64,000 nucleotides of DNA from a virus (IMGVR_UViG_3300047539_000055), one strand, 5' to 3'. Positions 22,251 through 61,829 are shown, numbered from the stretch's first letter. The notes: generated by a model not told the origin, from the letters alone. Made by a program: numbers and translations.

Positions 22251-23147
22251 TTATGGATTTATTCTTTTTCTTTTAGGATTTTTGATGAATCCTCTGACGA
22301 ATCCAATGCTTTCATAATATGGCAATTCATTTCTAACAATTTTTTTCTTTTCTCGTGTAATTAAATTGAAAATTCCGATTCTACCCTTATTTGGAATTTT
22401 AGATGTTTCGATGCGATTCCAATCTTTTGAACGTCTTCCACGTAAATAACCTCGTTGAAGATAATCATTAAGTTCAGTGGGTAAAATTCTTTTTTCTAAA
22501 TTTAGTTTTCTATGGAATACTGTTATGGTTTGTGAAATTGTAATAGACCTTTTTAAATTTGCTTCATTTGTCTGTTGTTTTGTACCTTTGCTTAGTACAT
22601 ATCCCATTGCCAAAAATTTACTGAAATTATTCGGATGAATACGGCGTTCTTGTAAAGTTGTTGGATTAATCAAATATACATATTCATGTTGACGAATTGC
22701 TTGTGCTAACTTGCTGGCTTCTGTTCTTTTTAAACCAAACGCAGGATTATTTTTACCTATATTGGCTTCATAAGCACACAGTTTTACATATTCATATTGT
22801 TTAGATCGTAAAATCCTAATAGGAGTTCTTTTAGATTTTGCAAAACATTGAATTGCCCATCTACACTGTTTATAAAATATTGATCCTTTTGAAAACATTT
22901 TGGTTAATAATTTATGGCATATAAAATGTTCTCTTCCTGTTAGATATACATAATTTAATAAATCTTTTTCACCACCCAAGGCAAATGATTTTGGAAGAAT
23001 ATGATGCTTTTCAGTATATCCACAAATCAGATTTGCGTCCTTTTTATTTGTAGCGCGGATTTTCGCTCTAGCACAAATGGCTAGATATGTATTTGTATAT
23101 TTTGGTTTGGGATTCAATGATAAAAGTGTGGTAATATAAATATTCAT
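22251..23147 (-). CDS. Free-standing HNH homing endonuclease (MobE-like), downstream of RNR
   Basis: EKHHILPKS..GG...LTGREHFICHKLL; NUMOD-like C-terminal repeats; likely ATG 23147 after GGAGG. Confidence 0.85.
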   Translation of the reverse strand: MNIYITTLLSLNPKPKYTNTYLAICARAKIRATNKKDANLICGYTEKHHILPKSFALGGEKDLLNYVYLTGREHFICHKLLTKMFSKGSIFYKQCRWAIQCFAKSKRTPIRILRSKQYEYVKLCAYEANIGKNNPAFGLKRTEASKLAQAIRQHEYVYLINPTTLQERRIHPNNFSKFLAMGYVLSKGTKQQTNEANLKRSITISQTITVFHRKLNLEKRILPTELNDYLQRGYLRGRRSKDWNRIETSKIPNKGRIGIFNLITREKKKIVRNELPYYESIGFVRGFIKNPKRKRINP

Positions 23148-23214
23148 ATGCTGTTGCCTCCCTTGGCGATAGGGCAGTTGGGTCTTCATACCGCGAACTG
23201 CAATAGTATTTATA
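23135..23214 (+). ncRNA. Endonuclease-associated two-hairpin element, copy 1
   Basis: TAAATA..CTGTTGCC-TCCCTT-GGCGATAG-G-GCAGTT-G-GGT-loop-ACC-GCG-AACTGC..TATTTA. Confidence 0.75.
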
Positions 23215-23222
23215 CAAATAAT

Positions 23223-23549
23223 TTATCTTGCCAGCATATAAATCATTACATACGCGGTATCAACCAAGGTGCATTGATCTGGTTTTCTATACACTTTTTT
23301 GTTAGCAACATCAGCCTTGCAATTTTGCTCTTTCCAAGTTCTTTCCAGAACCAATTGGTCTGTTCGTTGAATTGTTCTGCGCGTTTTATTTGCTCCGAGT
23401 CGCGGTCCTTGTTCTCGTATTTCAATGACGCGAAATAATTCAATATTACCACGATCCCATGGCGCGGTTACATAATCATCAACTTTTATTTCTCTACCGA
23501 TAAAATCAACTACCATTGTGATTCCTTTCTTGGTTGAGCGTATAACCAT
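23223..23549 (-). CDS. Hypothetical small protein (DFIGREIKVDDYV), related to 25473 and 53247 ORFs
   Basis: Shared D..G..(I/L).V.D(Y/W)V start; minus-strand TTGACA-N17-TATAAT near 23748. Confidence 0.55.
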   Translation of the reverse strand: MVIRSTKKGITMVVDFIGREIKVDDYVTAPWDRGNIELFRVIEIREQGPRLGANKTRRTIQRTDQLVLERTWKEQNCKADVANKKVYRKPDQCTLVDTAYVMIYMLAR

Positions 23550-23786
23550 GATGTAGTTGAATCACACCAACATGGTTGTAATTTTTTATTTTCGTGAATC
23601 CAATTTGAATAGTCACCTGCATGAAATATAAATATTCGTTTTCCACAATTTTTGCAGAGAACTATCATGCCGAGTTTTTCGGCCATCAATTCGGTGTCAG
23701 GTATTTCAATCACATTTTCATTATATAAGAATTTAGTCCAGTTGTCAAGTTTTCTAAGTTATAGAAAACAAAGAAGTTATATTTTC

Positions 23787-23815
23787 TTGACTTTTATTCG
23801 GTAATTTGGTATACT
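23787..23815 (+). promoter_or_regulatory. sigma70-like early promoter
   Basis: TTGACT-N17-TATACT. Confidence 0.75.
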
Positions 23816-23838
23816 ATATTTGTGGTTGAGGAAAACAA

Positions 23839-24159
23839 ATGACTGAGTTGACTCGCGAAGGAATTGTTGAGTTGCTGAAAAAGAGTGACAAGGCGGTTTG
23901 CCGCGCTCTTTTGGTTATCAATTCTAATCAGACCGCAGATGAGCAAATTTCCGAAACAACTACACATCTTAATGGGCGTGGTTTTCGCCCATTTCACGCC
24001 GCTATCGGCACTTCAATGGCAAATTTCTATCAGCGCAATTCGTATCTCACGCCAAAGCAGATTGCATATTGGCGCAAGACTGATTGCAAAGGAAACATGA
24101 ATATTGGATTGTATTGGAAACAGTTGGTGGAAGCTGCAAAGCAGAAAGCGAGTGTATAA
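23839..24159 (+). CDS. Phage hypothetical protein
   Basis: RBS GAGG; first gene after promoter. Confidence 0.7.
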   Translation: MTELTREGIVELLKKSDKAVCRALLVINSNQTADEQISETTTHLNGRGFRPFHAAIGTSMANFYQRNSYLTPKQIAYWRKTDCKGNMNIGLYWKQLVEAAKQKASV

Positions 24160-24863
24160 TGAACGTTGAATTTCCGTCTATTGTCAATACTGAAAAGTAT
24201 TTGTTTGTTTTTGATTCCGAGCAATATGGAAGTTCGTCCACTGCCCCTGTGTTGCAGAATTTTTTGGTGAAGATTCGCTGTGGGGATGGATGGGGTTTTT
24301 CTTCACCGATTGCTATGCCTTTGGTTGGCGAATATCTCGCGTCATTGGCTACAGTGATGTTGGAAAACGATGAACTGTGTAAGGCATTGTATTACACACT
24401 CAATTGCAGATTCAGTGACGAAGATATAACTTTCGCAAGCAAAGTCGTGTATGGCAAAAAGAAGAAATACTATTCACGACATTTTTCTCGCGTTTCAACT
24501 GTATCTATGAAACAATACGATACACGCTGGAAAGAAGTAAACGAGTATATGGATGGTTCTCCAAATAGCATCATAAATATTTTGACGGGTGATTATCCCC
24601 GCTCGACTTTGGAACAGTATTTTTTGGCCGAAAAGGTTCGTACTTGGCTGTTTGCAGATCGTAAGCGTTCGCGTAAGTTTAGTATGGATGGTGCAGCCGA
24701 ATATGTAGGTTGGACACATAATTTTACACAAGAACGGGCAATTGAAAAAGCAATGTCAGCTTGTAAGTCGGCATTGACAATTTACAGAGAGAAGCTGGCC
24801 TTCAAGGAACATCTTGAAGATTTTACCAGAAACGCAATGGTAGTCAAACTGGAACAGGAATAA
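24159..24863 (+). CDS. Hypothetical protein ending in AMVVKLEQE
   Basis: TAATG coupling to upstream gene. Confidence 0.65.
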   Translation: MNVEFPSIVNTEKYLFVFDSEQYGSSSTAPVLQNFLVKIRCGDGWGFSSPIAMPLVGEYLASLATVMLENDELCKALYYTLNCRFSDEDITFASKVVYGKKKKYYSRHFSRVSTVSMKQYDTRWKEVNEYMDGSPNSIINILTGDYPRSTLEQYFLAEKVRTWLFADRKRSRKFSMDGAAEYVGWTHNFTQERAIEKAMSACKSALTIYREKLAFKEHLEDFTRNAMVVKLEQE

Positions 24864-25472
24864 GAAAGAGGAAAATGATATGATGGGAGCATCTGGTTAC
24901 AAGGCAAAGAAGGATTTGAAGGCGAGTGTTGGAAAGCCTTTGGGTTATGTTGAAACTTCACTGTTTGGCACTGAGTATAAGCCAAATGGAAAATTCTGTG
25001 TGGTTGGCCCCGATGCGTATAATGATCGGCGCTGGTATGCAGAAGTCACAATGGAAAATGGGTTGATAAAAAAAGTTACCTAATGAAAAATTGGCCTACT
25101 TTAAAGGCGGTCTTAGGAGCATTGGCAATAGCGTTTATAATACTATTGCCAATGATCCATTTGTTGACCATTCCAGCAATGCCGTGGATATTGGTTTTCA
25201 AAATTGATGGTATTGGTTGTGGCGCTATGGCTCCAATTCTTATTATATTTGGTTGGATGCAAGATCGCGAATATCGCAGACACATTGGACGAGAGATGCT
25301 TAGAAAGTTTGAGTCTTAGATAAACCATTCCCCAATATATTTTGAGGGATAGTAATAGGCATTGCGTTGCTTTGGCAATAGATTCATGGCAAAGCATAGA
25401 CCAATTGTGGCGAAGCCAACAAGAAACGCGAATTTTGCTGAAGTGTTCATAAGGGTATTTATCGGAGAACTG

Positions 25473-27171
25473 ATGATTGATATGTTTGGTAAAGAATTGG
25501 AGATTGGCGATTATGTTATGTATTACGAACGAGTGCCATATACGAATCCAAGAAGAAAATTTTTGGCAGTAATCAGCAAGTATGCATATGAAAGCGATTA
25601 TACTGCATTGATCAGTTTTTATCCAACACGGCAGAGTGCCAATTTAGCTGTAAAATCTTCGGAAATTGAAAAATTATTGCCCGAACAAGCGATGTTATTG
25701 ATGTTGGAGTATGTATGAAAACCAAATGGATTCCAAAAATCGGTGATTATGTTTGGTTTAATTTTAAAGCCACTCCAAAATATTGGCTTGGATGGGTCGG
25801 AGATATTTATTATGGAAACAATGTAAAATTTGTATATCATTGGGAAGGTCATATACAAGATAAGCAAGCACCTCTGTTGTATCTATCACCAGCCACAAAA
25901 GAGGAAGTTGTATTGTGGATGTTGGAGAACGTATGAAAACCAAATGGATTCCAAAAGTTGGCGATTATGTTTTCTATAATTTTCCTGGGGATACGCCACA
26001 TATTGGAGGAAGCGTTCCTTTGGAAGTTGGAGCATTGATGAGAGACAAAAACGGAGTGGAAATTACCGAAGGTTCTTTAGTATTGTTTGAAACATTTATG
26101 GATAATGATGAACGCTGGATTTCAAAAATAATCTGTTTTGATAAGGGAAAGTATTATTCCAAAGAAGGTTATCCTGAAGATTATGATGTAGTAGTAATGT
26201 GGGAGAATTGGCGAAGACTGCCATCCAACGTGGAAGTTGTTACCGAAGATAAAGCGTTGTTACTGGCGTTTGAAGACAGCCGAGTGAGGTTGAAATTTTG
26301 AAGAAAAATGACGCTACAGTAATGATTGATAAAAATGGCAGACGAGTCTATAAAAATAGTTTGGCTAAATATCACGCCGCTATATATGATGAAAATGGTG
26401 CGCTTAATATTCCTCAAATTTGGATTTCTCATATTCCAAAATATATCATATGATCGTGGTAAGGGTTCGGAGATTACTTTGCGTATGTATGATGATTGGA
26501 TGAAAAATCCATATGAAATTGAAGTAATTGACGACACTCCAGAAAGTATAATGTTGGCAATATTTGAAGGCGCGATTTTGAAAGGATATAAATGAAAGTT
26601 AAATATCACAAAATTCATAAAATGAAGATGCAGGATAAAAATGGCAAACGGATTTATGAAAAAAGTTTTGTCAAGTATGCGACAGGCTGGGGTGCGATAG
26701 GCTCAAGTTTTAACGCAGCGCAAATATCTCGTATTGAAGAAACTACATTTCAAATTAAATTTTCTTTCAATGGTGGTAGATGGAATAAAAATCCTTATGA
26801 GGTTGAAGTAATTACAAAAGGAGAAGCGGTTTTATTAATGTTTGAAAGGTGATGTCATGGAAGAATGGACTTTAAAAGACAATTTTACACGAATGATTGA
26901 CAAAAATGGAAAGACGATCCATGAAGATAGTTTGATGAAATATCTTGCGTATCCTTTGCCTCTAAACGAGACAGGCAACATGCCACAAACTTTTTGTATT
27001 GCCAGAGCGTCAGATATTCTACACTATCACACATCAATTGTGTTTGTTTTTGATAATATGTGGCACAAGAATCCATGTGAGGTTGAAGTTGTAACAGAAG
27101 ACGAAGCAATATTGGAAGCGTTCAAGGGCAACGTAAGGTTAAAATTTGAAAGGAAAACAAAATGTATATAG
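25473..27171 (+). repeat. Array of small paralogous ORFs with YopX-like DKNGxxI motif and NPxE(V/I)EV..EA.L..FE end
   Basis: ORFs at 25473, 25715, 25934, 26322 (frameshifted), 26592, 26842. Confidence 0.7.
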
Positions 27172-27252
27172 TTGAAAACAAACGACTTGTTTTATTTGAC
27201 TTTTTGGTTTGAATTTGGTATACTATACTTGTACTCAAGAAAGGGAAACCCT

Positions 27253-27708
27253 ATGACAGATGATAGAATTTATGTAATCGTTCCAGAAACAGTTCAGGTA
27301 ACCATTCCTGGCAAGTGGGATTTTCCAAATGGAGTCAATGCACCTGCCGAGCAGTTGCCTGACACCGTGGAATCATATTCACTGGTGCCTGGTAGACTTA
27401 TTGCGCAAGGCGTTCATATTGGTCGCAAGATCGGTGCTTGGTTGGCTCAGCGTGAGATTCCTTATGAAGATGTTACTACCATTGTGTTGAGTGTTCGCAA
27501 CACAAAGGAACTGCGTAAGGTTTCCACTGAAATGTCAGTTGCGCTTTCGCTCCATGCACTCAATGTTGGTTATCAGGAATTTCACGATACCAATCTTGAG
27601 TTCTATGGAACTGATGCGACTGTACATACTATTACCGCTGTCGGCCCACTGTCTCCAGAAGTTCGGGAGAAGCTTGAAGATTCCATGGGTCATTTGGAGT
27701 TATACTAA
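27253..27708 (+). CDS. Peptidyl-tRNA hydrolase type 2 (Pth2)-like protein
   Basis: YVIV, GRLIAQGVH, TIVLSV, D, T.TAVGP pattern; follows early promoter 27196-27224. Confidence 0.6.
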   Translation: MTDDRIYVIVPETVQVTIPGKWDFPNGVNAPAEQLPDTVESYSLVPGRLIAQGVHIGRKIGAWLAQREIPYEDVTTIVLSVRNTKELRKVSTEMSVALSLHALNVGYQEFHDTNLEFYGTDATVHTITAVGPLSPEVREKLEDSMGHLELY

Positions 27709-28056
27709 TGACCAGTACAAAAGATGAGCGAGTAGCGAAGGCAAAGGTATTTTTGCATACTTTGGTTGGTGACCAGTTGAGTTATCGAGCAGTGTATTAT
27801 AGAAGACCGTCAACTTTGCCAAAAAATTATAATTATCTTATGTCTGAATGGAATATCATAAACGATGTAATAATACGGATTCATGAAAAGAAAGATGTTT
27901 CCATTCAACTTTTATTTGCAATGGAAGAAATGGAAAATAAATATCGCGATCCGTTGATGCTTGCAAAGTTGATGAACTAAATATGCATTAAAATTTCCTT
28001 GTTATTTTTGTAAAGATGCGTTACACTATAAATAGACCATATCTATAGGAGCATCT

Positions 28057-28611: not shown

Positions 28612-28815
28612 ATATTCCAGCAGATTTACAAGTAATGTACGATCATTACCTTGATTTGACAGCCAAAAACGGTGAACGAGCGCCAGTGTCTCAAGAGATA
28701 GCCGATCTTATTTTGACGTTGATTGAAAGAATCGCTGAATTGGAAACAGATAGTAAAAACCTAAATTCGTATATTCATTTTGAATGTAGGAGAAACCAAG
28801 CGAAGGAGAATTAAA

Positions 28816-29475: not shown

Positions 29476-29596
29476 TGCTTGACAAAATTATAGTTTTGGT
29501 GTATGATAAAGAAGATGCTACAACTGGCTCAAAAACGATGTTTAGCGATGATACTTTTGATTTGTATCAAAAATATTTGAAATATGTGAATGGATA

Positions 29597-29926: not shown

Positions 29927-29927
29927 C

Positions 29928-29956
29928 TTGACAAATGAGAGGAAGACAGGTATAAT
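29928..29956 (+). promoter_or_regulatory. Perfect sigma70 consensus promoter
   Basis: TTGACA-N17-TATAAT. Confidence 0.85.
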
Positions 29957-30687: not shown

Positions 30688-30773
30688 TGGGATGTAGGAA
30701 AACTGGAAACCCCATCTGACTCTGAATCAGACGCCGTTAGGCACTGAAGGTTCAACTCCTTCCATCCCAGCCA
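30688..30773 (+). tRNA. tRNA-Gln(CTG) with long variable arm
   Basis: TGGGATG/CATCCCA, G73, CCA; TCTGA-CTCTGAA-TCAGA; TTCAA T-loop. Confidence 0.9.
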
Positions 30774-31145
30774 AAAATTTTGAGGTAATTATGTCTGATA
30801 AGAAAAAATTAGTTCCTGAGCAATGTCCAAATTGTGGGGCAACTGACAAAAAAGACAAGAAAAATGGGTGCTGTTATTTTTGGCACGATCTTGTAGATAG
30901 TCTCGGTAATGCCATTGGAGAAGCAAAGTTTGGTGAGTAACATGAAACCAAGCGAAGAATTAATTACGCTCATGGCAGATTTGGAAATATATCTGAACGA
31001 TTTAGATTTGCAAATCGCAGATGTTCAAGAAAAAAGATTAGCCGCTGTAAAAAGTTTAGAAACATTGAAAAATTTAATGCTTGAAGACACAGAAATTTAG
31101 TGAGTAAATATGATTCAAATTAGATGGCGTGGTTGGTGAGATTAA

Positions 31146-31220
31146 GCCGTATTCGTATAGTGGCTATTACTCATTCTCGGTAAGAATGAAACGTGGGTTC
31201 AATTCCCTCATGCGGCTCCA
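31146..31220 (+). tRNA. tRNA-Thr(GGT), C33
   Basis: GCCGTAT/ATGCGGC, CCA; CATTC-TCGGTAA-GAATG. Confidence 0.85.
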
Positions 31221-31413
31221 TTTTGGAAATTAGATAAATATGAATAAGTTAAAAGAAGAATTTGAAATAGTAACTCGTGAATATGACGCATTACAAGACT
31301 GGCAAAAGAAACTCATAGTAATGGCTGAGTTGAGAAAGCAACAAGTGATCCGTCAAAAATTTGAACGCAATCATTTACGCGATACCAATAATGATTGGAC
31401 TTAGATTTTAAAT

Positions 31414-31496
31414 GCTACGGTGGCACAGCGGCGACTGCACCTGTTTTGTAAGCAGGAATATAAACACCGGGGGTTCGATTCCCTTCCGTAGCTCCA
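31414..31496 (+). tRNA. tRNA-Thr(TGT), enlarged variable loop
   Basis: GCTACGG/CCGTAGC, CCA; CCTGT-TTTGTAA-GCAGG. Confidence 0.88.
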
Positions 31497-31502
31497 AATT
31501 TT

Positions 31503-31585
31503 GCTACAGTGGTCCAGCGGCGACGACAGCAGTTCCGTAAACTGCCATACAAACATCGGGGGTTCGATTCCCTTCTGTAGCTCCA
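31503..31585 (+). tRNA. tRNA-Thr(CGT), C33, enlarged variable loop
   Basis: GCTACAG/CTGTAGC, CCA; GCAGT-TCCGTAA-ACTGC. Confidence 0.88.
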
Positions 31586-32473: not shown

Positions 32474-32701
32474 ATGAGAGACGAATATGATTTTTCAAAA
32501 GGTGTACGCGGTAAATATATCAACAAGATAAGTTCTTGGGTTTTAGAACCAGAAGTTTGTAGATTTTGTGGGAAGCTGACTTACACAAGTTTGGATGATG
32601 CAGAGTATGCCGCCAAGCGATCCTCTCAAGGAAAGCAAACAATTAGTACTTATGCTTGCCCATACGAAACGGGCTGGCATTTAACATCAAAACAGAGATA
32701 A
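32474..32701 (+). CDS. Small protein: EYDFSKGVRGKY motif plus Cys/His Zn-finger-like region
   Basis: MRDEYDFSKGVRGKY...CRFCGK...YACPY..GWHLTS. Confidence 0.6.
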   Translation: MRDEYDFSKGVRGKYINKISSWVLEPEVCRFCGKLTYTSLDDAEYAAKRSSQGKQTISTYACPYETGWHLTSKQR

Positions 32702-33288
32702 GAATTTATAAGTTGTTTTCTTTGTTGATTGTATAATTTTAATGATTTGGAAATTTTTAAGCGCGATACAGGAGATAAGGTTCTATTTTTATTTGAATTA
32801 GCAACTTTTTTGCTAAAGCCAAGCGGTTTTGATTTACCTTTTAATCCTTTGGACATTTTTTGTTTAATTGTTTTTGTTTTTTCGACTCCATAAATTTCTT
32901 CATATGTTTTACCTAAATTTCGTTTATGTGCTGGATGTATGGATTGTTTGTTTCGGGTTTCGGCGCTACGTTTAGCACCAGATATACCATCGCCGCCATT
33001 GGTCATATTACGAAGACATCCGATTCCAAGATCAATGCGACCATATAAATGAATAAGTAGTACTTCAATTTGTAATGCATTGGCTTCAGTAATATTTTGA
33101 GACACAAATTGAATATTGTTTTTATCATTTGGTTTAATACGATGTTGGGTACAAAAGGCACGATTGCCGATACCTTTTCCAATATAATATGGGGTTCCAA
33201 TAGCACCATATTTTGATTTACGAGAACGTAAATATTGGTAAACATAAAAATTTTTGTTTTGAAAAAGATTTGTGGAATAAATAGTCAT
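32650..33288 (-). CDS. Free-standing GIY-YIG-like homing endonuclease with NUMOD3-like repeats
   Basis: FYVYQYLR..TPYYIGKG, E..LI..YGR.D...G.LRNMTNGGDG; ATG 33288 after GGAGG. Confidence 0.85.
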   Translation of the reverse strand: MTIYSTNLFQNKNFYVYQYLRSRKSKYGAIGTPYYIGKGIGNRAFCTQHRIKPNDKNNIQFVSQNITEANALQIEVLLIHLYGRIDLGIGCLRNMTNGGDGISGAKRSAETRNKQSIHPAHKRNLGKTYEEIYGVEKTKTIKQKMSKGLKGKSKPLGFSKKVANSNKNRTLSPVSRLKISKSLKLYNQQRKQLINSYLCFDVKCQPVSYGQA

Positions 33289-33354
33289 ATGCTGTTGTCC
33301 TCCAAGGCGATAGGGCAGTTGGGTCATGACACCGCGAACTGCATAAGTATTTAG
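33277..33354 (+). ncRNA. Endonuclease-associated two-hairpin element, copy 2
   Basis: CTGTTGTC-CTCCAA-GGCGATAG-G-GCAGTT-G-GGT-loop-ACC-GCG-AACTGC between inverted TAAATA. Confidence 0.75.
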
Positions 33355-33373
33355 CAAAAAGAAAGGGAATAAT

Positions 33374-34051: not shown

Positions 34052-35185
34052 ATGTCCAGTTCTATAAAAATTAGTCAACTTCCATTTGCTCCGTCTTTAT
34101 CAAATGTGGCTATTTTTCCGCTTGTTCAAAATTCAATAACAGAAAAAGCCACAATTGCACAGCTTGCCGGTTTTCTTAATGGACAGATTGGTGGTGCGCA
34201 AGGACCACAAGGAAACCAAGGTAATACTGGTGGACCGCAAGGTTTCCAAGGAAACCAAGGAAACCAAGGCAACCAAGGTACTGGAAATCAAGGAACTCAA
34301 GGAAATCAAGGAGCATCTGTCCACGGATCACAAGGTAATAATGGTGCGACAGGATTACAAGGAGTCCCTGGAACACAAGGAGTTCAAGGAGTTCAAGGAG
34401 GCCAAGGAAGCCAAGGAAATCAATCCAGCGTTCAAGGCAATCAAGGAAATCAAGGAAATCAAGGCATTCAAGGCGCTGGATTCCAAGGCACGCAGGGATC
34501 ACAAGGAAATCAAGGCAATCAAGGAACTTCTGTTCAAGGAACACAAGGTCCACAAGGTTCTGGATATCAAGGTTTTCAAGGAAATCAAGGAAATAACGGA
34601 ACGCAAGGCAATCAAGGTATTCAAGGCGCGGGATTCCAAGGCAATCAAGGAAACACTGGAACACAAGGAAATCAAGGCATTCAAGGCGCTGGATTTCAAG
34701 GCAACCAAGGCAATCAAGGAAATCAAGCAAGCAACGGAGCGCAAGGAAATCAAGGCATTCAAGGTGCTGGTTTCCAAGGAAGCCAAGGAAATCAAGGTGA
34801 CCAAGGTGGTGCTGGAACTCAAGGTAATACTGGCCCACAAGGAACTCAAGGATTACAAGGCAATCAAGGCAATCAGGGAATCCAAGGCACTCAAGGATTA
34901 CAAGGCACTCAAGGCACTCAAGGATTACAAGGAACTCAAGGCAATCAAGGCAATCAAGGAGTTGGACATATTATTGTATTGGCTAATGCTTCACCTTCAT
35001 CGCCTGGTCCATTTGTTGTAGGACACACTTTAGGCTCTGCTCCCGAAGCAGTTGCAATTACAATGATTACCGGCGGCCAGATTTGGCTAAATACTGCTAA
35101 TATTTCTATTGGGTATGATTCGGCCAATATTTATTGTGTTGCATCAGATGCTAATGTTGCAGCACGCATTTATGTATGGAGTTAA
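34052..35185 (+). CDS. Collagen-like (Gly-X-Gln) fibre protein
   Basis: ~250 aa of GNQ/GTQ/GIQ triplets; N-term IKISQLP typical of phage fibres. Confidence 0.85.
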   Translation: MSSSIKISQLPFAPSLSNVAIFPLVQNSITEKATIAQLAGFLNGQIGGAQGPQGNQGNTGGPQGFQGNQGNQGNQGTGNQGTQGNQGASVHGSQGNNGATGLQGVPGTQGVQGVQGGQGSQGNQSSVQGNQGNQGNQGIQGAGFQGTQGSQGNQGNQGTSVQGTQGPQGSGYQGFQGNQGNNGTQGNQGIQGAGFQGNQGNTGTQGNQGIQGAGFQGNQGNQGNQASNGAQGNQGIQGAGFQGSQGNQGDQGGAGTQGNTGPQGTQGLQGNQGNQGIQGTQGLQGTQGTQGLQGTQGNQGNQGVGHIIVLANASPSSPGPFVVGHTLGSAPEAVAITMITGGQIWLNTANISIGYDSANIYCVASDANVAARIYVWS

Positions 35186-40181: not shown

Positions 40182-40275
40182 AGCCCTATAGTTTAACGGC
40201 AGAACAGCGGCCTTATAACCCGTATTAGCATTAGATAGATGCATTGTCTCAGTTCGAATCTGAGTGGGGCTACCA
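40182..40275 (+). tRNA. tRNA-Ile(TAT) with long variable arm
   Basis: AGCCCTA/TGGGGCT, A73, CCA; loop CTTATAA; V-arm GCATT/GATGC; CTCAG-TTCGAAT-CTGAG. Confidence 0.8.
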
Positions 40276-40514
40276 AAAATAAGAAAGGTTGTTATGAAGG
40301 GTTATTTAACAATATTATTTGCTATTGGAGCAGTCATTAATAGTTTTGTACTGGCGTGGCTTAGTTCAATGCATAATGTGTGGTTTGCTACTTGGTGGTA
40401 TAATACAGCATTAGGTTGGGTGGGATTTTTAACATTTACTTGTGGAACTACTGCTATTATCCGATTTTTAATGTGGCTTGATCCTATGATGTGTGATGAT
40501 AAATAATTATATGT

Positions 40515-40589
40515 GGGCGTGTCGTCCAACGGATAGGACCACAATCTTCTAAATTGAAAATGCAGGTTCGATTCCTGCCATGCCTACCA
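40515..40589 (+). tRNA. tRNA-Arg(TCT)
   Basis: GGGCGTG/CATGCCT, CCA; loop CTTCTAA. Confidence 0.9.
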
Positions 40590-40603
40590 AATTAGCTCCA
40601 TTA

Positions 40604-40678
40604 GCTCCATTAGTTCAACGGATAGAACACTGGTCTTCGGAACCAGCTATGAGGGTTCAAATCCTTCATGGAGTACCA
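40604..40678 (+). tRNA. tRNA-Arg(TCG)
   Basis: GCTCCAT/ATGGAGT, CCA; CTGGT-CTTCGGA-ACCAG. Confidence 0.9.
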
Positions 40679-41321
40679 AATTTGAAACAGATATTTTGAT
40701 TTCTTCTCTGTTTCCAATAATTAGGGGAAAGAGTTTTATTAATTGTTCTAATTTATCGGCATCTTCTTTCATTTTGATCGGATTTTTTACATCAAGGAAT
40801 TTATTAAATTTTGGTAGATAGAAGTCTGGAAGATAGGTTCTCCATTTTTTCATAGTAGTATCAAACCAATGAAGTCTTTTAGATGGTCTTAACCATATGA
40901 TATTTTGTTCATCTAACCACTTTGCAATTGTTAGTTCCCAAGAAGATTGAAGACTAGCTTCAGTATTGTCATTATGATTGAAGTAAATAATTCTAATTTT
41001 GGCACATTTATTTTTAGAACGAATTGAGTCGCGACACGCAATTGAACAGCATTTTTGCCCCCAATTTTTTTGTTCGAATATATTGTGGCAATGATGACAT
41101 TTATAAAATTGTTTTGTTCGTTTAGATCGTGTTATTCCCTTGGGCATAGTAATTTTTCCTTCTTTATACAGTTTTTTCATTTTTTGAGAAAGATTTTCTT
41201 TAGCTTTGGTTGACCAAGTTGTTCGTGTTCGTCTTGCATTGTTAAATTTTGCAGCACAAGACTGAGAACAAAACATCTTAGTTTCAATGATAGATATTTG
41301 ACATTGTTTACAATTTTTCAT
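40647..41321 (-). CDS. Free-standing PD-(D/E)xK (TnsA-like) endonuclease with Zn-finger repeats
   Basis: C..C..FCS.SC twice; SSWE, YLPDFYLP, LDVK; TATAAATA just upstream of ATG. Confidence 0.75.
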   Translation of the reverse strand: MKNCKQCQISIIETKMFCSQSCAAKFNNARRTRTTWSTKAKENLSQKMKKLYKEGKITMPKGITRSKRTKQFYKCHHCHNIFEQKNWGQKCCSIACRDSIRSKNKCAKIRIIYFNHNDNTEASLQSSWELTIAKWLDEQNIIWLRPSKRLHWFDTTMKKWRTYLPDFYLPKFNKFLDVKNPIKMKEDADKLEQLIKLFPLIIGNREEIKISVSNLVLHEGFEPS

Positions 41322-41613
41322 ATACTGTATTTATACATTTTTCTGAATATGATGTAGTGAAGGTTCAAAAAAGGAAACAAATGAAAGTATTTTTATTGCT
41401 ACTCGTTGTATTTGTGGGTTATTACTTTTTGACTTCGTGGATGATTGATTCCCACTATAAAGAGATTGCTCAGCAAGAGCAGTATGTGAAAACACATGGT
41501 TGTACATTGGTAGAGACAATCCCAGTTCGTAGCGTAGGAATGATGGTACACGGAGAAACCGATATTTATAAATGTTCAGATGGAAAGACTATAGTAATAA
41601 ACTAGGTGATGAA

Positions 41614-54634: not shown

Positions 54635-54696
54635 AAATGTTCTCCGTTGTATTTAGCCGAACAAGTGGTATTTATACCCCTTGTCCTAAAATAAAA

Positions 54697-55036
54697 AGCT
54701 TAACAGTCGAAAGACTGAAACGCTCGTGAAAGGAGACAACCTCTATATATATTCGGACGTGACTAGCATTATGTCACCGGATCCACCAAATTTTTGATTT
54801 ATGTTTAGACACGAATTGTCTATACGGGTCCGACAAGATTCGACGGGTATATAAACGGGAAGTTACGAGCCAGGTTGTGGTACTCGCCCCTGTAAAAAGG
54901 AGAGAACTATTTATAATCGCTAACTCTGTTAACGATGGCACGGAAGTTTACACACACAGTGTAAAAATCCGTGTGCCAGTAATGGCGTAAGCCAGTACTC
55001 CGCAGCGTGGCCCCGACTGTGTAAAAGAAACGGGGC
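54697..55036 (+). ncRNA. ssrA: Circularly permuted (two-piece) tmRNA
   Basis: 3' acceptor half GAC-GTGAC/GTCAC-CGGATCC-ACCA (ends 54788) lies upstream of 5' half GGGTCCGA..GATTCGAC (starts 54826); G3-U70; tag frame 54919-54990 ANSVNDGTEVYTHSVKIRVPVMA*; outer ends approximate. Confidence 0.85.
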
Positions 55037-55046
55037 AACTACTTTT

Positions 55047-56057
55047 ATGAAACGAGAAATCACATTCGAAATTAAAAAATATGAGCAGTTTTTCAATAAT
55101 CAGTGGATTGTTTGGAAAATTGATAACGCCGCTTCAGATCGGGAATTTCTTGGAAGATTTGACACCGAGCAACTAGCAGAACAATTTGTAATGTTGAAAA
55201 AGTTGGAACAATGAATCTTTCCGAAATGAAATTACCGATTATCAATAAAGTTTTTTCGGAACTGATCTTTGCTGATATTTATGGTATACAACCAATGACA
55301 AAATTAGTGGGAACAAAAATAACGTATCATTGGAGCATTAAGGGGTATGAACATCAATGGATGCTTATACGAGAAGAAATTCATCCAATATTTTCATTGT
55401 TAAGTCCAATGCCAATTTATAGAATATTTGACACCGAGCAAGAAGCAATTGAAGCGATGGTTTTAGAAAAGTTGGAATACTAATGTCAACGATACCGCAG
55501 GGCAATCAGAGAATTTCAGTAGCGTTTGGTAATCAGGGAAATGTTGCTGGCGCAATAATTACTTCTGCTGGAAGTGCATGTGTTTCACTAGGACCGCAAG
55601 GTAATCAAGGGCCACAAGGTGCGGTTGCAGTAAACATAAGCAGTAGAAAACACTGGCGTATTGAATTTAGAAAAGCACATTTTTTAAAACGATTGTGGGA
55701 TAAAGGTTATTGGGTTTTAAAAACTTGGTATGAATATGATCATGATGGTTCACCGTACATATATCCTTCATATATCTTTAATGATCAAACCAGAACTTTT
55801 GCCACAGAACAAGAAGCAATCAATGTTCAAGTATTAGAACAGTTGGAACAATAATGGAACGCGAATTTGCAAGGCCAGTCGATGATAGACTTAACAAAAT
55901 ATTTTATGAAATTCACCCGACTAAGTTTGCGTTTTGTAGAAACTGGCAATGGCAGTTGAATATATATCACGGTTTGAATGGTGGACTTAGACGATATTTG
56001 TTTAGAACAGAAGAACAAGCCGAACAATATGCAATGTTGAAAAAATTAGAAGAATAA
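55047..56057 (+). repeat. Four ORFs sharing C-terminal F.TE(Q/E).A.....L(K/E)(K/Q)LE motif
   Basis: ORFs 55047-55214, 55211-55483, 55483-55854, 55854-56057. Confidence 0.8.
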
Positions 56058-56071
56058 GAAAGTAGAAATAA

Positions 56072-56629
56072 ATGAAAATCCAATTTTTAGATTGTGAAAT
56101 GCTCTGTTGGGAAAATGGCATTGCACCGCAAGGGCAGACAAATCATATTATTCAAATCGGAATTGCAGAAGTCTCCACGGATACTTTGACAATCACGCGC
56201 AGTAAAAACTATTACATTCGTCCATCCAATCGTGATTTTGACTTGACTGATTACTGTCAGGATTTGACAGGAATTTCTAAATCATTGTTGGTTGATGAAG
56301 GTCACTACTTTCCAGAAGTTATGCAGTCCATCAAGAAACAATTTGGTGGCAATACGCCGACCTTTGCATGGGGAGATGATTATCGTCCTATTATGGAACA
56401 TTGTTTAATTTACGATGTTTCTAATCCTTGGTTAGAAATGGGAATTGATGATTTTGGTATATTATTTCGCGGTTTTTATAATATTCAGAAAAAACTTCCA
56501 CTTAAAACAGCGTTGGATAGATTACATTTGAAATTTGAAGGTTGCCCTCACAACGCAATCAATGATGCAGTTGCCTTATCCGCACTCTATATGGAAACTT
56601 GCAAGAGAGTTAGAGTCAATAAAATTTAA
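56072..56629 (+). CDS. DEDDh 3'-5' exonuclease (ERI-1/KapD-like)
   Basis: LDCE, IIQIG, LTGI, WG.D, H.A..DA. Confidence 0.85.
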   Translation: MKIQFLDCEMLCWENGIAPQGQTNHIIQIGIAEVSTDTLTITRSKNYYIRPSNRDFDLTDYCQDLTGISKSLLVDEGHYFPEVMQSIKKQFGGNTPTFAWGDDYRPIMEHCLIYDVSNPWLEMGIDDFGILFRGFYNIQKKLPLKTALDRLHLKFEGCPHNAINDAVALSALYMETCKRVRVNKI

Positions 56630-56763
56630 GTGGAAATTTAAGGGAATCCCAACCTACAAATTCTGTAGTGATGAAATAGACCTTCGTTGGGTAAAACAGC
56701 TTGCAGATATGGTTGCAAGATAACCAATGATATAAGTAGTCATACCGTTTGGTACTCATGCGC

Positions 56764-57564
56764 TCAATAGCAATGATTTGAGAGGCGGCAAAATTCCGAA
56801 GTGGCATAAGGGAAATCTTCGGCTACAGATAATTTTGATTTGCAACGTTTCAAATGAAGAGTCATATTTTTATGAAAACACTCTTTTTGACAATATTTAC
56901 ATTTTTCGCGGGAGCGAGGACTTTGAACCATACCTAATTGTCTTTTTCTTTCCCAAGTATCTTTTTTCTTTTTAATGGCTTGCGCAGAAGCACAATTATT
57001 CATTGTACCGTTTTTCTTCTTAGTGGCTAAAATTTTAGCAATAATATTTGTATTATTTTCAGTTGTTCCATTTGCTCTTTTAGTTGCTAAAATTTTTTGA
57101 ACTACTAATGGAGTAAGAACATTTAGTGTACCATTTAATTTCTTTGTAGTAAGTTGTTTCGCTATAATTAATGGAGAATCATTGTTCGTGCCGTTTTTCT
57201 TTTTAGTTTCTTTACATTTCTTGATTTCTTCTTGAGTTATGGAACGACCACTATTGCCATCACCGCCCACAGTTCTATTTCTCAAACATCCAGTCCCCAA
57301 ATCAATACGACCAAATAATTGAATTAAATTTATTTCCAAGTCAAAGGAAACCAATTCTTTCATATGTTCGTATACAAATTGAATGCGATTCCGATCTTTT
57401 GGAACGGAAATTCCTTTTTGGTGTTTAGCAAATGCTCTATTGTCGAAACCTTTACCAATATAATATGGCGTCCCAGCTAATCCATTTATAGAGTCTTTTT
57501 CGCGCAGATACATATAGACATAGAATCTATTGTCTTGGTGAAATGTAATGGGATAAATATTCAT
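56764..57564 (-). CDS. Free-standing GIY-YIG-like homing endonuclease with TKKxNGT repeats
   Basis: FYVYMYLR..TPYYIGKG, GRIDLGTGCLRNRT.GGDG; paralogue of 32650-33288. Confidence 0.85.
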   Translation of the reverse strand: MNIYPITFHQDNRFYVYMYLREKDSINGLAGTPYYIGKGFDNRAFAKHQKGISVPKDRNRIQFVYEHMKELVSFDLEINLIQLFGRIDLGTGCLRNRTVGGDGNSGRSITQEEIKKCKETKKKNGTNNDSPLIIAKQLTTKKLNGTLNVLTPLVVQKILATKRANGTTENNTNIIAKILATKKKNGTMNNCASAQAIKKKKDTWERKRQLGMVQSPRSREKCKYCQKECFHKNMTLHLKRCKSKLSVAEDFPYATSEFCRLSNHCY

Positions 57565-57632
57565 AGCTGATCGCCTCCATTGGCATTAGAGCGATTGGGA
57601 ATTAGAGTTCCGTGAATCGCATTAGTATTTAT
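57553..57632 (+). ncRNA. Endonuclease-associated two-hairpin element, copy 3
   Basis: CTGAT(C)GCC-TCCATT-GGCATTAG-A-GCGATT-G-GGAA-loop-TTCC-GTG-AATCGC between inverted TAAATA. Confidence 0.75.
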
Positions 57633-57793
57633 CCCAAATAGGGAACTCCACGGCTGTAGATTACAAAAGTGGAAGAATAATATTACTATGGTAAATTACT
57701 ATGGTAATGTTGTTTTTCTACTTTTTGTATGTTACACTCTGTTTATGGCAACATCGTTGCCGAACTAAATTTACAAGAAAAGGAAAACAATTT

Positions 57794-58969
57794 ATGAATT
57801 TCTCATTGAAAACTGCGGTGTTTTTTCTTGCCGCTTTTGTATTAACTTGTCCTACTTCTGCATTTGCTTGGCCTACTTGCTCTGGTAATTGGGTTCAGGT
57901 TCCTACAGGAACTACGGGTACAGGTGCTTCTGGTACTGGTTATGGTGCCGTTGAAGTTGAAAGCGGTCAAACATGGCAATGTACCGCCATAACTACTCCA
58001 ACAACGGGTGGCGGTACAAATAACAATACTTCTACTTCTACTTCAAGTGCAAACGGCGGCAATTCTTCTTCCAGTGCTAATGGTGGAAATTCATCTGCAA
58101 CTGGTGGAACAGCCAATGGCGGTGCTGGTGGTAAGGGTGGTGCTGGTGGTTCAGCGACAGGTGGTACGGGCACTGGTGGTTCAGCTACAGGTGGAACAGC
58201 CAATGGTACAAACACGCTCAACGGCGGTGCAACAACATCTTCGGCCAATGGAACAAACACCCTCAATGCTGGTTCAACAACAGCTACCGGTGGAACGGCC
58301 AATGGTGGAACAACTACATCCAGTGGTGGTAATTCTAAAAATGCTAACAAGAATACCAACACTGCCGCTGGTGGTACAGGTGGTACTGGCGGAACTTCAA
58401 CAGTAACTTCTGCAAATACAAACGCTAACACAGCGAATGGTGGTGCAGGTGGTACTGCAAACCAAAGCCAACAACAGTCAAACAATAGTACTGGCAATAG
58501 CACATCATTGAATTCAACTTATAATGAAGTTCGTCAAACTCCGTTGGCATATGCACCAGATGCTATTCCAACTGCTCCATGTATCAAGAGTTATGGTGCG
58601 GGTGCTTCTGGCCCAATGTTTGGTGCTTCATTCGGCGGCGGTAAGATTGATAAAGGTTGCGATGCTCGTGAAACTGCGCGTTCATTTGCTCTCTTGCATA
58701 ATTTTACAGCAGCGGCAAAAATTCTTTGTCAGACAGATGCGGCAAAACGCGCTGGCTTAACTTTGGATGATTGCTTGGCAATTATCACTCCAGTAGTTCC
58801 AGTGACTATTAGAGAAGTTCCAGCAGTGACACCAACTCCGGTGGCATCAGTAACACCAGTAACAGTAGAAACTCCTGCTCCTACTCCTGCTCCGCAGATT
58901 GTAGACGCACCAGTAACTCCTGTGACTCCTGTGAAGTCTGTCTATCCAGAAAAAAAGATTAGTCAATAA
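57794..58969 (+). CDS. Secreted Gly/Thr/Asn-rich low-complexity protein with Cys-containing C-terminal domain
   Basis: Signal peptide ending AFA; GGTANG repeats; Pro/Thr tail. Confidence 0.7.
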   Translation: MNFSLKTAVFFLAAFVLTCPTSAFAWPTCSGNWVQVPTGTTGTGASGTGYGAVEVESGQTWQCTAITTPTTGGGTNNNTSTSTSSANGGNSSSSANGGNSSATGGTANGGAGGKGGAGGSATGGTGTGGSATGGTANGTNTLNGGATTSSANGTNTLNAGSTTATGGTANGGTTTSSGGNSKNANKNTNTAAGGTGGTGGTSTVTSANTNANTANGGAGGTANQSQQQSNNSTGNSTSLNSTYNEVRQTPLAYAPDAIPTAPCIKSYGAGASGPMFGASFGGGKIDKGCDARETARSFALLHNFTAAAKILCQTDAAKRAGLTLDDCLAIITPVVPVTIREVPAVTPTPVASVTPVTVETPAPTPAPQIVDAPVTPVTPVKSVYPEKKISQ

Positions 58970-59316
58970 TGGTTGCACTAATTATACTCTCGTCGGCGCT
59001 AATTTGCTTTCAAGGCCAATGCCATCATGCATTGGTCGGAAGCGACACGCCGACAGGAGTTTTTTCAGTTGTTCATATGCTTACTGATCAACCTGGTTAT
59101 GGTGGTGATGTTTTAGTTTTCGCACAAACAAAAACAACTGTATTCGCAATTCATCGTGTGTGGCTTCGTATTCCAACACAACACCGAGCGGAAAGACTCG
59201 CAAGCGATGATCCTATAGAAAGAAAAACTGTAACAAGAGGCTGTATAAATGTTGCTCCTGATATATATGATGAATTGCAAGACCTAACGACGGTGGAAAT
59301 ACGGCAAGACCCATAA
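58969..59316 (+). CDS. L,D-transpeptidase (YkuD)-like protein
   Basis: TPTG.F, FAIH, T.GCINV. Confidence 0.7.
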   Translation: MVALIILSSALICFQGQCHHALVGSDTPTGVFSVVHMLTDQPGYGGDVLVFAQTKTTVFAIHRVWLRIPTQHRAERLASDDPIERKTVTRGCINVAPDIYDELQDLTTVEIRQDP

Positions 59317-59327
59317 AACTGAGTTTC

Positions 59328-59454
59328 TAAAGTGTTGATTCTAAAGGGCAAAATTTCCGAATTTTGCCCTATTTGGCGTTATAAGGGGTCGGGTGGTATA
59401 ATGACATCATTTGACCTTGAAAGTCGCTTAAAACGTCAATCTGAGCCTCAAAAT
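59328..59454 (+). repeat. ~130 bp structured intergenic repeat, copy B
   Basis: Similar to 11799-11926. Confidence 0.75.
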
Positions 59455-59946
59455 AAGTAATATTTTGGTTGACTTTTGAATAAATTCTTGCTATACAATA
59501 TTTGTAGTTGAGAGGAATGAACGATATGACATTTCGTGAAGATACCGAAGCATTGGCGTCTATGATCATTAGAACAAAGGATTTACTCAATTTTTGGGTT
59601 AAGAACAGTGATGCTGATGGTATATGGAATAATGATTCAAAGGCTCAATTTGACACTCTTATGAATGCGTTTATGGTTGATGCTCTGTCATATCATATTG
59701 ATCTGGCTAGCCTAATTATGCATGATGCTGTTTCCGTTGCGCATTTGGAACGTGCTACCGATTTTACAAAGTTGGCAGTTTGGCCAAGAATGATTGACGA
59801 ATTGTATCCTTATTTGAAGGATGCCCAAGTAAGTTACTGAAAACAAAGGACAAAATAATTGAGATTTTGGTTGACAAACACGCCCAACTTTGGTATTCTA
59901 TATATGTTGGTAGGGAATACCAAACACTTTCAAGGAGAAATCACAG

Positions 59947-61059
59947 ATGGCTACAGTAACCATTATCAAGGGTTTTGGACGTGGTGGAAAGCTGATCAAG
60001 AATCAGACTTTTACCTTGCTCAAGGGTTTTGCTGTTGGCGGTAGGAGCGGTAAGGGGTTTATTACCGTTGATGGCACAAAGTTGTATGGATGCCCTTCCG
60101 CTCGTATCAAGGTCAAGTCCGAAAAGGATTTTGTCATCAATGGCGAATTGCCTGTAGGTAAGTCAAAGCCTCTTTCTGCCCGTCGCATTGCGGCTGACGC
60201 AAAGAAGGGTGAAGCAGTTTCCATGCTGGAAGACTCTTCCATTCCTGATGTTGAATCAAATGAAACAGATGAAGAAATTACCACACGAATCAGGAAGCGT
60301 TTTAGCACTCTGAATAAGTTGACAATGGGTGTTAGACGCGGTGATATTACATCTCTTTTTGTTACTGGTGCGCCAGGTGTTGGAAAAACTTATGGCGTCG
60401 AAGCAACTTTGAATGAGGCTGGTTTTCTTGCTGCTCTTGAAGATAACCCAAAGCGTTATGAAGTTGTTTCTGGTGCAATGACTCCCATTGGCCTTTATAT
60501 GAAGTTGTTTGAATATTGTGGGCCAAATGATGTTCTTGTGCTGGACGATTGCGATATGGTTTTCGCTGATGAAACTGCACTCAACATTCTCAAGGCTGCA
60601 TTGGACACTTCTAAGGTTCGCAAGATTTATTGGAATGTGGCTTCCAATGTTTTGAACAAGGCAGACGTTCCAAATTATTTTGTATTTGAAGGTTGTGTAA
60701 TCTTCATTTCAAATATCAACTTTCGCAAGGTTCGCAGTGAGCGTCTTCGTGGTCATTTGTCTGCTTTGATGTCTCGTTCACACTTCCTTGATTTGACTGT
60801 CCATACCTTCCGTGAGAAAATGCTTCGCATTGAAGATTTGGTTACGAATCACGATATGCTTGATCAGTTTGGTTTGAAGAAGTCCACTTGTAATGCGATG
60901 ATGGGATTTCTTCGCGAGAATGCCAAGGAGTTCAATGAACTTTCTTTGCGCTCTGTTATCAAGTTGGCTGGTCTTGCTAAGACTTGCGATGAAATCACAG
61001 AAGAATGGGAAGAAATCGCTCGTGAATCGTTGATGGGTAATCCACTGTCTTACGAATAA
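59947..61059 (+). CDS. AAA-type ATPase with small N-terminal domain
   Basis: Walker A GAPGVGKT, Walker B VLVLDD, FISN, SR; early promoter near 59871. Confidence 0.85.
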   Translation: MATVTIIKGFGRGGKLIKNQTFTLLKGFAVGGRSGKGFITVDGTKLYGCPSARIKVKSEKDFVINGELPVGKSKPLSARRIAADAKKGEAVSMLEDSSIPDVESNETDEEITTRIRKRFSTLNKLTMGVRRGDITSLFVTGAPGVGKTYGVEATLNEAGFLAALEDNPKRYEVVSGAMTPIGLYMKLFEYCGPNDVLVLDDCDMVFADETALNILKAALDTSKVRKIYWNVASNVLNKADVPNYFVFEGCVIFISNINFRKVRSERLRGHLSALMSRSHFLDLTVHTFREKMLRIEDLVTNHDMLDQFGLKKSTCNAMMGFLRENAKEFNELSLRSVIKLAGLAKTCDEITEEWEEIARESLMGNPLSYE

Positions 61060-61070
61060 TCTAAACACTT

Positions 61071-61095
61071 GGGTCAGTCGAGAGACTGACCCTTT
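61071..61095. terminator. Hairpin terminator between convergent genes
   Basis: GGGTCAGTC-GAGA-GACTGACCC-TTT. Confidence 0.7.
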
Positions 61096-61766
61096 CTTTC
61101 CTTCAAAGTGTCTTTTTGCTTTTGAATAGATTCTAAAGTTCGTTTTCTACCTCTATTTGCATCACCAATTTTCTTTTTACATTCTGCCGATCTTTCACAC
61201 AGTCCATTTTTCTTTCTAGTAGCAATTACTTTTTCTATTACATCTTTTGTCATAACATTCATTGTTCCATTTTTGCGCTTTGTTTCTAGTTGCTTGGAAA
61301 TTGTATTTTCGGATACAATATCTTTTCCGTTTTTGCGTCTTGTTTTCCAAGCCTGTTTTCGATTTTCAGGGGTATTCGGATTTATAATTCCTTTTGCTTT
61401 TTTCGTAGCGACACCCTTTGCTAAAGATTCGGGTGTCTGAGATAATAGTAAGAAACTTTTATTTCCGTTTGATTTATTGAACCAATCATTTCGTTGTGCC
61501 GCCCCAATTTTACACAATATTTTAGTTTCTAAATTTCTTGTTTGTTCAACAGTTTTACAAATAAGACGAATTTCCCAAGCAAACCACGAAACGCCATATT
61601 TATCTACTAGTTCATTTATTTCTTTGCTTGAAGTGAAATATTTATTTCCCAGATCAGAAGGATGACAATTTTTAGCGTAACGCGAACCATAATATCTTTT
61701 TCCGGTTGATTTTTCTGTAACAAGATATGTGAATGGTGTGCGATCTATGGCAGAATAAATAGGCAT
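61074..61766 (-). CDS. Free-standing GIY-YIG (Seg-like) homing endonuclease
   Basis: PFTYLV..TGKRYYGSR...YFTSS, E, N; T(K/R)(R/K)KNG repeats; ATG 61766 after GGAG. Confidence 0.8.
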   Translation of the reverse strand: MPIYSAIDRTPFTYLVTEKSTGKRYYGSRYAKNCHPSDLGNKYFTSSKEINELVDKYGVSWFAWEIRLICKTVEQTRNLETKILCKIGAAQRNDWFNKSNGNKSFLLLSQTPESLAKGVATKKAKGIINPNTPENRKQAWKTRRKNGKDIVSENTISKQLETKRKNGTMNVMTKDVIEKVIATRKKNGLCERSAECKKKIGDANRGRKRTLESIQKQKDTLKERKGQSLD

Positions 61767-61829
61767 GGCTGGTGCTCCATAAAGCATTAGAATTGGTGGG
61801 ACTCGTTATCCGCGACCAATAGTATTTAT
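61755..61829 (+). ncRNA. Endonuclease-associated two-hairpin element, copy 4
   Basis: CTGGTGCT-CCATAA-AGCATTAG-A-ATTGGT-G-GGA-loop-TCC-GCG-ACCAAT between inverted TAAATA. Confidence 0.75.

Follow-up and report, generated by a model that had tools for sequence, protein, structure and literature searches.

In the window (the whole 64,000-nucleotide (nt) stretch of viral DNA analysed, IMGVR_UViG_3300047539_000055), four copies of an approximately 80-bp element lie over the starts of four minus-strand homing endonuclease genes. The element is proposed, with about an even chance of being right, to unite late promoters in convergent orientation with a structured antisense RNA, which would extend over the ribosome site and restrain the nuclease. 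A sequence-only reading of the window had placed the four copies over these gene starts, and all of them were recovered there; the positions of the copies, of the parts of copy 1 and of the nuclease genes are collected in Table 1.

Read on the plus strand, the 5' part of the element consists of (A/T)ATAAATA, NN, CAT (nuclease start codon), 0–2 nt, G, hairpin 1 and R; after R, hairpin 2, 1–5 nt and GTATTTA follow. Hairpin 1 has the format CUG...UAG (8 bp, loop with CUCC); hairpin 2 consists of 6 bp, an internal loop, 3–4 G-C pairs and a loop. The hairpin 1 loop of copy 1 is complementary to the Shine-Dalgarno sequence of the nuclease gene. As had been noticed from the sequence, TAAATA is found on the plus strand in codons 2–4 and TATTTA at the far end of each window copy; the proteins headed by the element begin MNIY, MTIY, MNIY and MPIY, and the three endonucleases of the window without it do not begin MxIY (MSNL, 33374; MKNC, 41321, minus strand; MKNA, 54634, minus strand).

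Table 1. Window copies of the element, parts of copy 1 and the nuclease genes concerned.
Feature	Position	Strand	Particulars
Copy 1	23135–23214	+	overlaps start of minus-strand nuclease gene 22251–23147
Copy 1, plus-strand box TATAAATA	23135–23142	+	core TAAATA 23137–23142; nuclease codons 2–4; 7 nt before GCTG; putative antisense RNA promoter
Copy 1, hairpin 1	23151–23172	+	CTGTTGCC / loop TCCCTT / GGCGATAG; two G-U pairs; minimum free energy (MFE) fold, covariation
Copy 1, hairpin 2	23174–23201	+	GCAGTT-G-GGT / loop / ACC-GCG-AACTGC; forms on both strands; invariant bulged G residues
Copy 1, minus-strand box TATAAATA(CT)	23207–23214	-	5 nt before G at hairpin 2 base; putative late promoter of nuclease mRNA
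HNH-type homing endonuclease gene, begins MNIY	22251–23147	-	phrog_655, E 9.5e-23; NUMOD3 match weak
Copy 2	33276–33355	+	TAAATA 33278–33283; CAT 33286–33288; hairpin 1 33292–33313; hairpin 2 33315–33342; TATTTA 33348–33353; 82.5 bits
YIGKG-type endonuclease gene, begins MTIY	32650–33288	-	phrog_15526
Copy 3	57552–57633	+	TAAATA 57554–57559; CAT 57562–57564; hairpin 1 57567–57589 (one bulged C); hairpin 2 57591–57620; TATTTA 57626–57631; 79.7 bits
YIGKG-type endonuclease gene, begins MNIY	56764–57564	-	phrog_15526
Copy 4	61754–61830	+	TAAATA 61756–61761; CAT 61764–61766; hairpin 1 61769–61790; hairpin 2 61792–61820; TATTTA 61823–61828; 81.6 bits
SegE-like GIY-YIG endonuclease gene, begins MPIY	61074–61766	-	Pfam SegE_GIY-YIG PF19835, E 2.3e-06; phrog_314

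A covariance model (R1) was built from the four window copies and 18 copies from IMG/VR and was run on the window with filters off; the window copies scored 79.7–84.7 bits, the next match 17.8 bits, and no fifth copy was found in this run. Two pattern scans of IMG/VR followed by this model yielded 109 matches in phage contigs, 74 of them distinct; some of the matching records are 330–360 kb long and encode gp23. Over the 74 distinct copies, standard pairs made up 97.2% of the pair cells and 303 cells were changed on both sides relative to the commonest pair; none of 500 column shuffles reached the observed values of pairing and double change, and when the 3' partners were slid by 1–3 columns pairing was only 24–43%. 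The compensatory changes listed in the sequence-only reading are real and hold over these copies from other phage contigs. Its 'G opposite GYG' in hairpin 2 was correct as to the site, the content of which is rather a covarying G-Y pair within the internal loop (66 G-C, 5 G-U, 3 A-U), flanked by two bulged G residues (G120 and G122) that are invariant in 74/74 copies; UGGG/CCGYGA is kept beyond the needs of pairing.

The two-hairpin fold is the plus-strand minimum-energy fold in all four window copies (−16.4 to −22 kcal/mol; minus strand, −12.6 to −14.2 kcal/mol). Hairpin 1 contains, on the plus strand, 111 G-U cells versus 2 A-C cells (46 versus 2 with the conserved third pair, G-U, left out), and its mean MFE is −5.8 kcal/mol on the plus strand versus −2.7 kcal/mol on the nuclease (sense) strand; hairpin 2 contains 655 Watson-Crick, 7 G-U and 1 A-C cells and is of equal energy on both strands. 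The G-U pairs that had been said to work on the plus strand only are thus real and kept across the distinct copies. Because of the excess of G-U over A-C, hairpin 1 is judged to be selected for folding antisense to the nuclease while staying open on the mRNA, where it contains the Shine-Dalgarno sequence; hairpin 2 is kept foldable on both strands. The conserved G-U of CUG/UAG is of the only pair type that gives hairpin 1 this strand asymmetry.

The plus-strand box precedes GCTG by 5 nt in 30 copies, by 6 nt in 13 and by 7 nt in 12, and the distance is kept in copies in which the start codon has shifted into an enlarged hairpin 1. The minus-strand box, TAAATACT, stands five bases before the opening G of hairpin 2 in 4/4 window copies; it is upstream of both hairpins and, in all copies, approximately 65 nt before the nuclease ATG. 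Codon usage was inspected in 39 distinct M-x-I-Y nuclease genes: codon 2 is represented by 12 codons for 11 amino acids, all ending in T (background 0.35), the Ile codon is ATT in 38/39 (background 0.43), and the Tyr third base, immediately beyond the hexamer, shows no departure from background (TAT in 30/39 versus 0.75). In six copies the hexamer is read in a different frame, giving M-I-F-S, and the N-termini beyond MxIY are mutually unrelated (e.g., MxIYYVYAYLR, MAIYHKHHIIPK, MCIYCGTTKH). TAAATA in codons 2–4 is accordingly best described as constrained as DNA, not as peptide. A derivation of MxIY from the GIY motif fits one subfamily (MxIYYVYAYLR) but was rejected as the general cause, since HNH proteins open with MAIYHKHHIIPK, numerous unrelated N-termini have nothing but MxIY in common, and the constraint tracks the hexamer, not the residues. 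TAAGTA replaces TAAATA in some IMG/VR copies (L093, L079, L060), in three cases on both strands; such copies may reflect either a phage-specific variant of the late promoter or pairing between the boxes.

The suggested link of the element to homing endonuclease starts and MxIY extends beyond the window: the cassette heads GIY-YIG, HNH, phrog_15526 and TnsA-like genes (phrog_314 in 27 members, phrog_655 in 16, phrog_15526 in 15, several HNH families, one TnsA-like protein), with MxIY in the 39 distinct genes above. Copies 1 and 2 are 84% identical and head unrelated proteins; copies 2 and 3, 70% identical, head related ones. With element similarity decoupled from nuclease family in this way, the portability of the regulatory cassette postulated in the sequence-only reading stands, and its regulation by a late antisense RNA is treated below as a proposal.

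The window is AT-rich (37% GC), with most genes on the plus strand. Its ribonucleotide reductase (RNR) and RNA-ligase regions are 74% and 68% identical in DNA sequence to a 360-kb IMG/VR phage contig; genes for a major capsid protein of the T4 type (Pfam Gp23, E 1e-95 to 1e-99) and for a late sigma factor resembling gp55 (phrog_12791, E 1e-55 and 1e-72; phrog_234) are present in this contig and its relatives. On the grounds of this similarity, the source of the window is taken to be an uncultured T4-like phage of large size. When copy 1, the 2 kb around it and the most frequent variant from IMG/VR were searched by blastn against 50,697 deposited phage records, nothing meaningful was returned.

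A T4 late promoter consists of an 8-bp TATA box approximately one helical turn upstream of the start, without a −35 element (PMC2988020, PMC7892883). In approximately 0.9 Mb of the related contigs, TAAATA-N5-ATG opens an open reading frame (ORF) of at least 70 codons in 20 cases versus 1–4 for five control hexamers, and the TAAATA-to-ATG spacing also shows a raised plateau at 15–30 nt. Both boxes of the element are probably T4-type late promoters, because gp23 and a gp55-like late sigma factor are encoded by the related phages and TAAATA-N5-ATG occurs more often than the control patterns. TAAATA would then be a start-proximal, late-promoter-like signal with the RNA start approximately 6 nt downstream, and both RNA 5' ends would therefore fall at the bases of the two hairpins. 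A −35/−10 pattern was not found in the cassettes, save one weak sigma-70-like match (9 of 12 consensus positions) in copy 3 (57580–57608). The 20 cases at N5 also suggest leaderless late mRNAs in this phage group. Elsewhere in the window, the element-less endonuclease gene at 41321 has TATAAATA-N6-ATG; at 6890, 14647 and 41322–41335 (minus strand), as well as in IMG/VR loci L115–L117, TAAATA is followed after 5–6 nt by the ATG of a long ORF, with no space for a Shine-Dalgarno sequence. A TAAATACT box lies 26 nt upstream of the tail-fibre gene 34052; the product of this gene (34052–35185, plus strand) is a tail-fibre-like protein made up mostly of GNQG/GTQG collagen-like repeats.

The following mechanism is proposed. 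The approximately 80-bp portable control cassette would travel with homing endonuclease genes of large T4-like phages and carry a facing pair of T4-type late promoters, each with TAAATA as its core, approximately 65–70 bp apart from start to start. Transcription from the minus-strand promoter would yield the nuclease mRNA, with its 5' end at the hairpin 2 base; the plus-strand promoter, inside nuclease codons 2–4, would give rise to an RNA whose 5' end lies at the hairpin 1 base and which extends back across the leader. Complementary to the nuclease leader over its full length, this antisense RNA would form both hairpins and display, in the loop of hairpin 1, the Shine-Dalgarno complement CUCC. 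On the mRNA, A-C mismatches would take the place of the hairpin 1 G-U pairs, and the ribosome site would for this reason be single-stranded and open to ribosomes as well as to the antisense loop; RNA–RNA pairing together with collisions of facing polymerases would hold nuclease synthesis low. Of the late antisense RNA with an exposed anti-Shine-Dalgarno loop that had been put forward from the sequence, the fold, the strand, the box constraint and the spacing stand; that both boxes fire, that the plus-strand RNA accumulates and that it represses the nuclease, we infer. The anti-Shine-Dalgarno loop, UGGG/CCGYGA and the boxes are common to all copies in a genome, and for this reason a shared antisense RNA may act in trans as well as in cis, the pooled RNAs forming one network that would throttle all cassette-bearing nucleases simultaneously, perhaps together with a protein that recognises the invariant bulged G residues; this extension is regarded as rather unlikely.

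In IS10/Tn10, a facing promoter overlaps the 5' end of the gene of the mobile element, and the loop of RNA-OUT, a stable antisense stem-loop, meets an unstructured target, RNA-IN, over the ribosome site and the start codon. The present element resembles this system, as far as can be predicted from sequence, in the putative facing promoter over the gene 5' end, the predicted structured antisense RNA and the open target: boxes are present with the right spacing and under nucleotide constraint, and hairpin 1 is predicted to fold on the plus strand only, with an anti-Shine-Dalgarno loop. A discrete, terminated small RNA of the RNA-OUT kind is not apparent; a terminator scan of the cassettes found no canonical terminator after hairpin 2, and in copy 4 the hairpin 2 stem, one base and then GUAUUUAU make a weak terminator at best. 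Whereas the IS10 gene encodes a transposase, the gene here encodes a homing nuclease of a lytic phage; further differences are that the putative promoters belong to the T4 late class, two hairpins are involved, the cassette is common to unrelated nuclease families, and there is no sequence or Rfam relation. The label 'antitoxin' used in the sequence-only reading is an analogy only.

Several points weigh against antisense control. Counts over copies overstate the number of independent events, because the copies are related by descent; TAAATA-N5-ATG could be a translation signal and not a promoter; and promoter activity is ascribed to either box from T4 and from the enrichment. With no terminator after hairpin 2, the plus-strand RNA may be just a long leader of the next plus-strand gene, which is the right-hand neighbour in 45/63 copies and starts a median of 55 nt past the element. 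The box complementarity provides a further, weakly supported cause of joint box conservation, a closing helix.

The leader possibility belongs to a reading that we consider less probable, though the foremost of the alternatives, namely a two-way promoter and leader cassette without regulatory pairing. The nuclease gene, usually inverted between host genes, would receive from the cassette its own late promoter and an outward one that restarts transcription of the next host gene; the hairpins would protect 5' ends (hairpin 2 on the nuclease mRNA, hairpin 1 on the outward RNA), and hairpin 1 would be broken in the mRNA only to free the ribosome site. The frequency and closeness of the following plus-strand genes (17 nt past the element in copy 2) and the lack of a terminator after the element fit this reading, as does a plus-strand terminator at 61071–61092 that would halt read-through before copy 4 is reached; in T4, promoters of downstream host genes are known to lie within homing endonuclease genes (PMC2988022). 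The right-hand neighbour is, however, co-oriented with the nuclease in 18/63 copies, window copies 1 and 4 included, and in these, with no plus-strand gene to serve, the plus-strand box is at least as well kept (exact in 16/18 versus 34/45 with a following plus-strand gene), so that its conservation is independent of having such a gene to drive. Ordinary TAAATA-headed gene leaders in these phages are, moreover, 0–30 nt long and not 90–140 nt, and the conserved G-U, the invariant bulged G residues and the anti-Shine-Dalgarno loop are left unexplained. The hairpin at 61071–61092 (plus strand; 9 bp, 6 G-C, T-run) is strong and terminator-like, separates the end of a plus-strand gene (59947–61059) from the inverted nuclease gene's 3' end, and could be bidirectional.

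Control of the kind known from T-even phages was also considered and is judged improbable. In I-TevI, I-TevII, I-TevIII, segB and Aeh1 mobE, a late promoter lies within a sense-RNA hairpin that masks the ribosome-binding site, and expression is late and limited; such masking hairpins with nested late promoters are the rule for these genes (PMC2988022). Transferred to the element, UAAAUA of a read-through transcript would pair with UAUUUA of codons 2–4 and so enclose the ribosome site in a three-way junction; late transcripts, which start past the box, would escape the mask, and the plus-strand box would be a pairing partner and not a promoter. The boxes are indeed perfect inverted repeats (TAAGTA with TACTTA in three copies), the pair beside the hexamer shows some C-G/G-U alternation, and the covariation score of the boxes (0.086 versus 0.057 in shuffles) was reached by 1/500 shuffles. 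The helix would, however, consist of just 6–8 A-U pairs closing a multiloop of approximately 70 nt; mixed TAAGTA/TATTTA copies give G-U on the plus strand and A-C on the sense strand; approximately 70% of the copies are inverted relative to their neighbours, so that no sense read-through from upstream is expected; and a sigma preference specific to each phage explains the co-variation of the boxes equally well. The element has in common with T-even control that the head of a nuclease gene carries a late promoter (here the putative promoter TAAATACT, directly before the gene) and an RNA structure at the ribosome site. It differs in that the sense hairpin is broken, the putative promoter precedes the two hairpins, another one points back towards it and the majority of cassette-bearing genes run opposite to the genes beside them. 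The element lacks two features that define the T-even ribosome-site-masking hairpins: no late promoter lies inside a hairpin (only the weak box-to-box helix would fit), and hairpin 1, in which the Shine-Dalgarno sequence lies, is broken up on the sense strand and, at the mean sense-strand MFE given above, does not sequester it stably. A hammerhead or other ribozyme at the possible three-way junction was dropped, no Rfam match being obtained at the gathering score or at E ≤ 10.

That the element acts as DNA, either as a recombination or shuffling module or as a cruciform or single-strand hairpin site, and would let unrelated nuclease genes swap heads or insert, is given still less weight. The decoupling of element similarity from nuclease family, the strictly Watson-Crick hairpin 2, as a cruciform would need, and the precedent of the PeSL cassettes (PMC2839356, PMC4122927) speak for it; recombination would, however, want sequence identity and not compensatory changes, the 303 double-change cells indicate a folded single strand, and duplex DNA gives no account of the strand-specific G-U bias of hairpin 1. 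PeSL of T4-type phages consist of an early sigma-70 promoter and a terminator-like stem-loop between ordinary genes (PMC2839356, PMC4122927). Like these, the element is a short conserved module of putative promoter and stem-loop that recurs in T4-type genomes and is associated with modular exchange of genes; unlike them, it bears boxes of the late type on either strand, its two-hairpin fold covaries and it is tied to nuclease start codons, and the one weak sigma-70 match and the absence of a U-tract terminator do not correspond to the PeSL composition. Least credence is given to a plus-strand RNA with some other job (a site for a phage or host protein, a processing signal or a ribozyme in host-gene read-through RNA), which would suit the invariant bulges G120/G122 and the conservation of UGGG/CCGYGA past pairing needs but has no known partner and no matching Rfam family, ribozymes included, at E = 10, and which leaves a hairpin 1 loop that is exactly the anti-Shine-Dalgarno sequence; the guide-like scaffold of the sequence-only reading found no support.

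The whole-window Rfam scan gave no match to the element at the gathering threshold, and at E ≤ 10 the best match, the SodC thermometer, was due to chance (19 bits versus a threshold of 125). No description of such a cassette was found in literature searches; within the literature searched, antisense control of this kind has not previously been described for homing nuclease genes.

Further features of the window were as follows. The syntenic RNR region of the related 360-kb contig is without the cassette, and the adjoining small genes are inverted between the two phages: window 23223–23713 (minus strand) and IMG/VR locus L119, 246–1313, carry small genes beside the RNR gene on opposite strands. 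This is read as a block inversion; the window block also contains the nuclease gene of copy 1. Window 54722–54990 (plus strand), which matches the permuted transfer-messenger RNA (tmRNA) family (RF04321) barely above threshold (48.6 versus 47 bits), is a candidate phage-borne two-piece tmRNA. Two tRNA clusters (30688–31582 and 40182–40675, plus strand) were found; the Rfam tRNA matches total seven. The RNA ligase gene (17484–18518, plus strand; phrog_24030, E 2e-110) encodes a protein whose first approximately 65 residues also match HNH endonuclease families, and its product is possibly an HNH–RNA ligase fusion. A tandem TACTATGGTAA(A/T) repeat (57672–57718, plus strand) lies just upstream of and overlaps the start of the gene of a 422-amino-acid protein, which is of low complexity (G/T/S/N-rich) and secreted-looking.

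Protection of the carrier from its homing endonucleases is known in detail for a few T-even genes only, where it is effected by sense-strand hairpins. If the proposed antisense control is true, the cassette would be a second solution, based on antisense RNA and common to GIY-YIG, HNH, YIGKG-type and TnsA-like nucleases, in at least 74 sequence variants from contigs of uncultured phages; a putative promoter within the first codons would force the M-x-I-Y start on unrelated proteins, and the G-U/A-C asymmetric hairpin would be a simple design rule for a structured antisense RNA with an open target. Should the network in trans exist, it would be a phage-wide governor of homing endonucleases, adopted by each incoming nuclease gene to persist. 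The covariance model provides a marker with which free-standing nuclease genes of metagenomic phages can be annotated.

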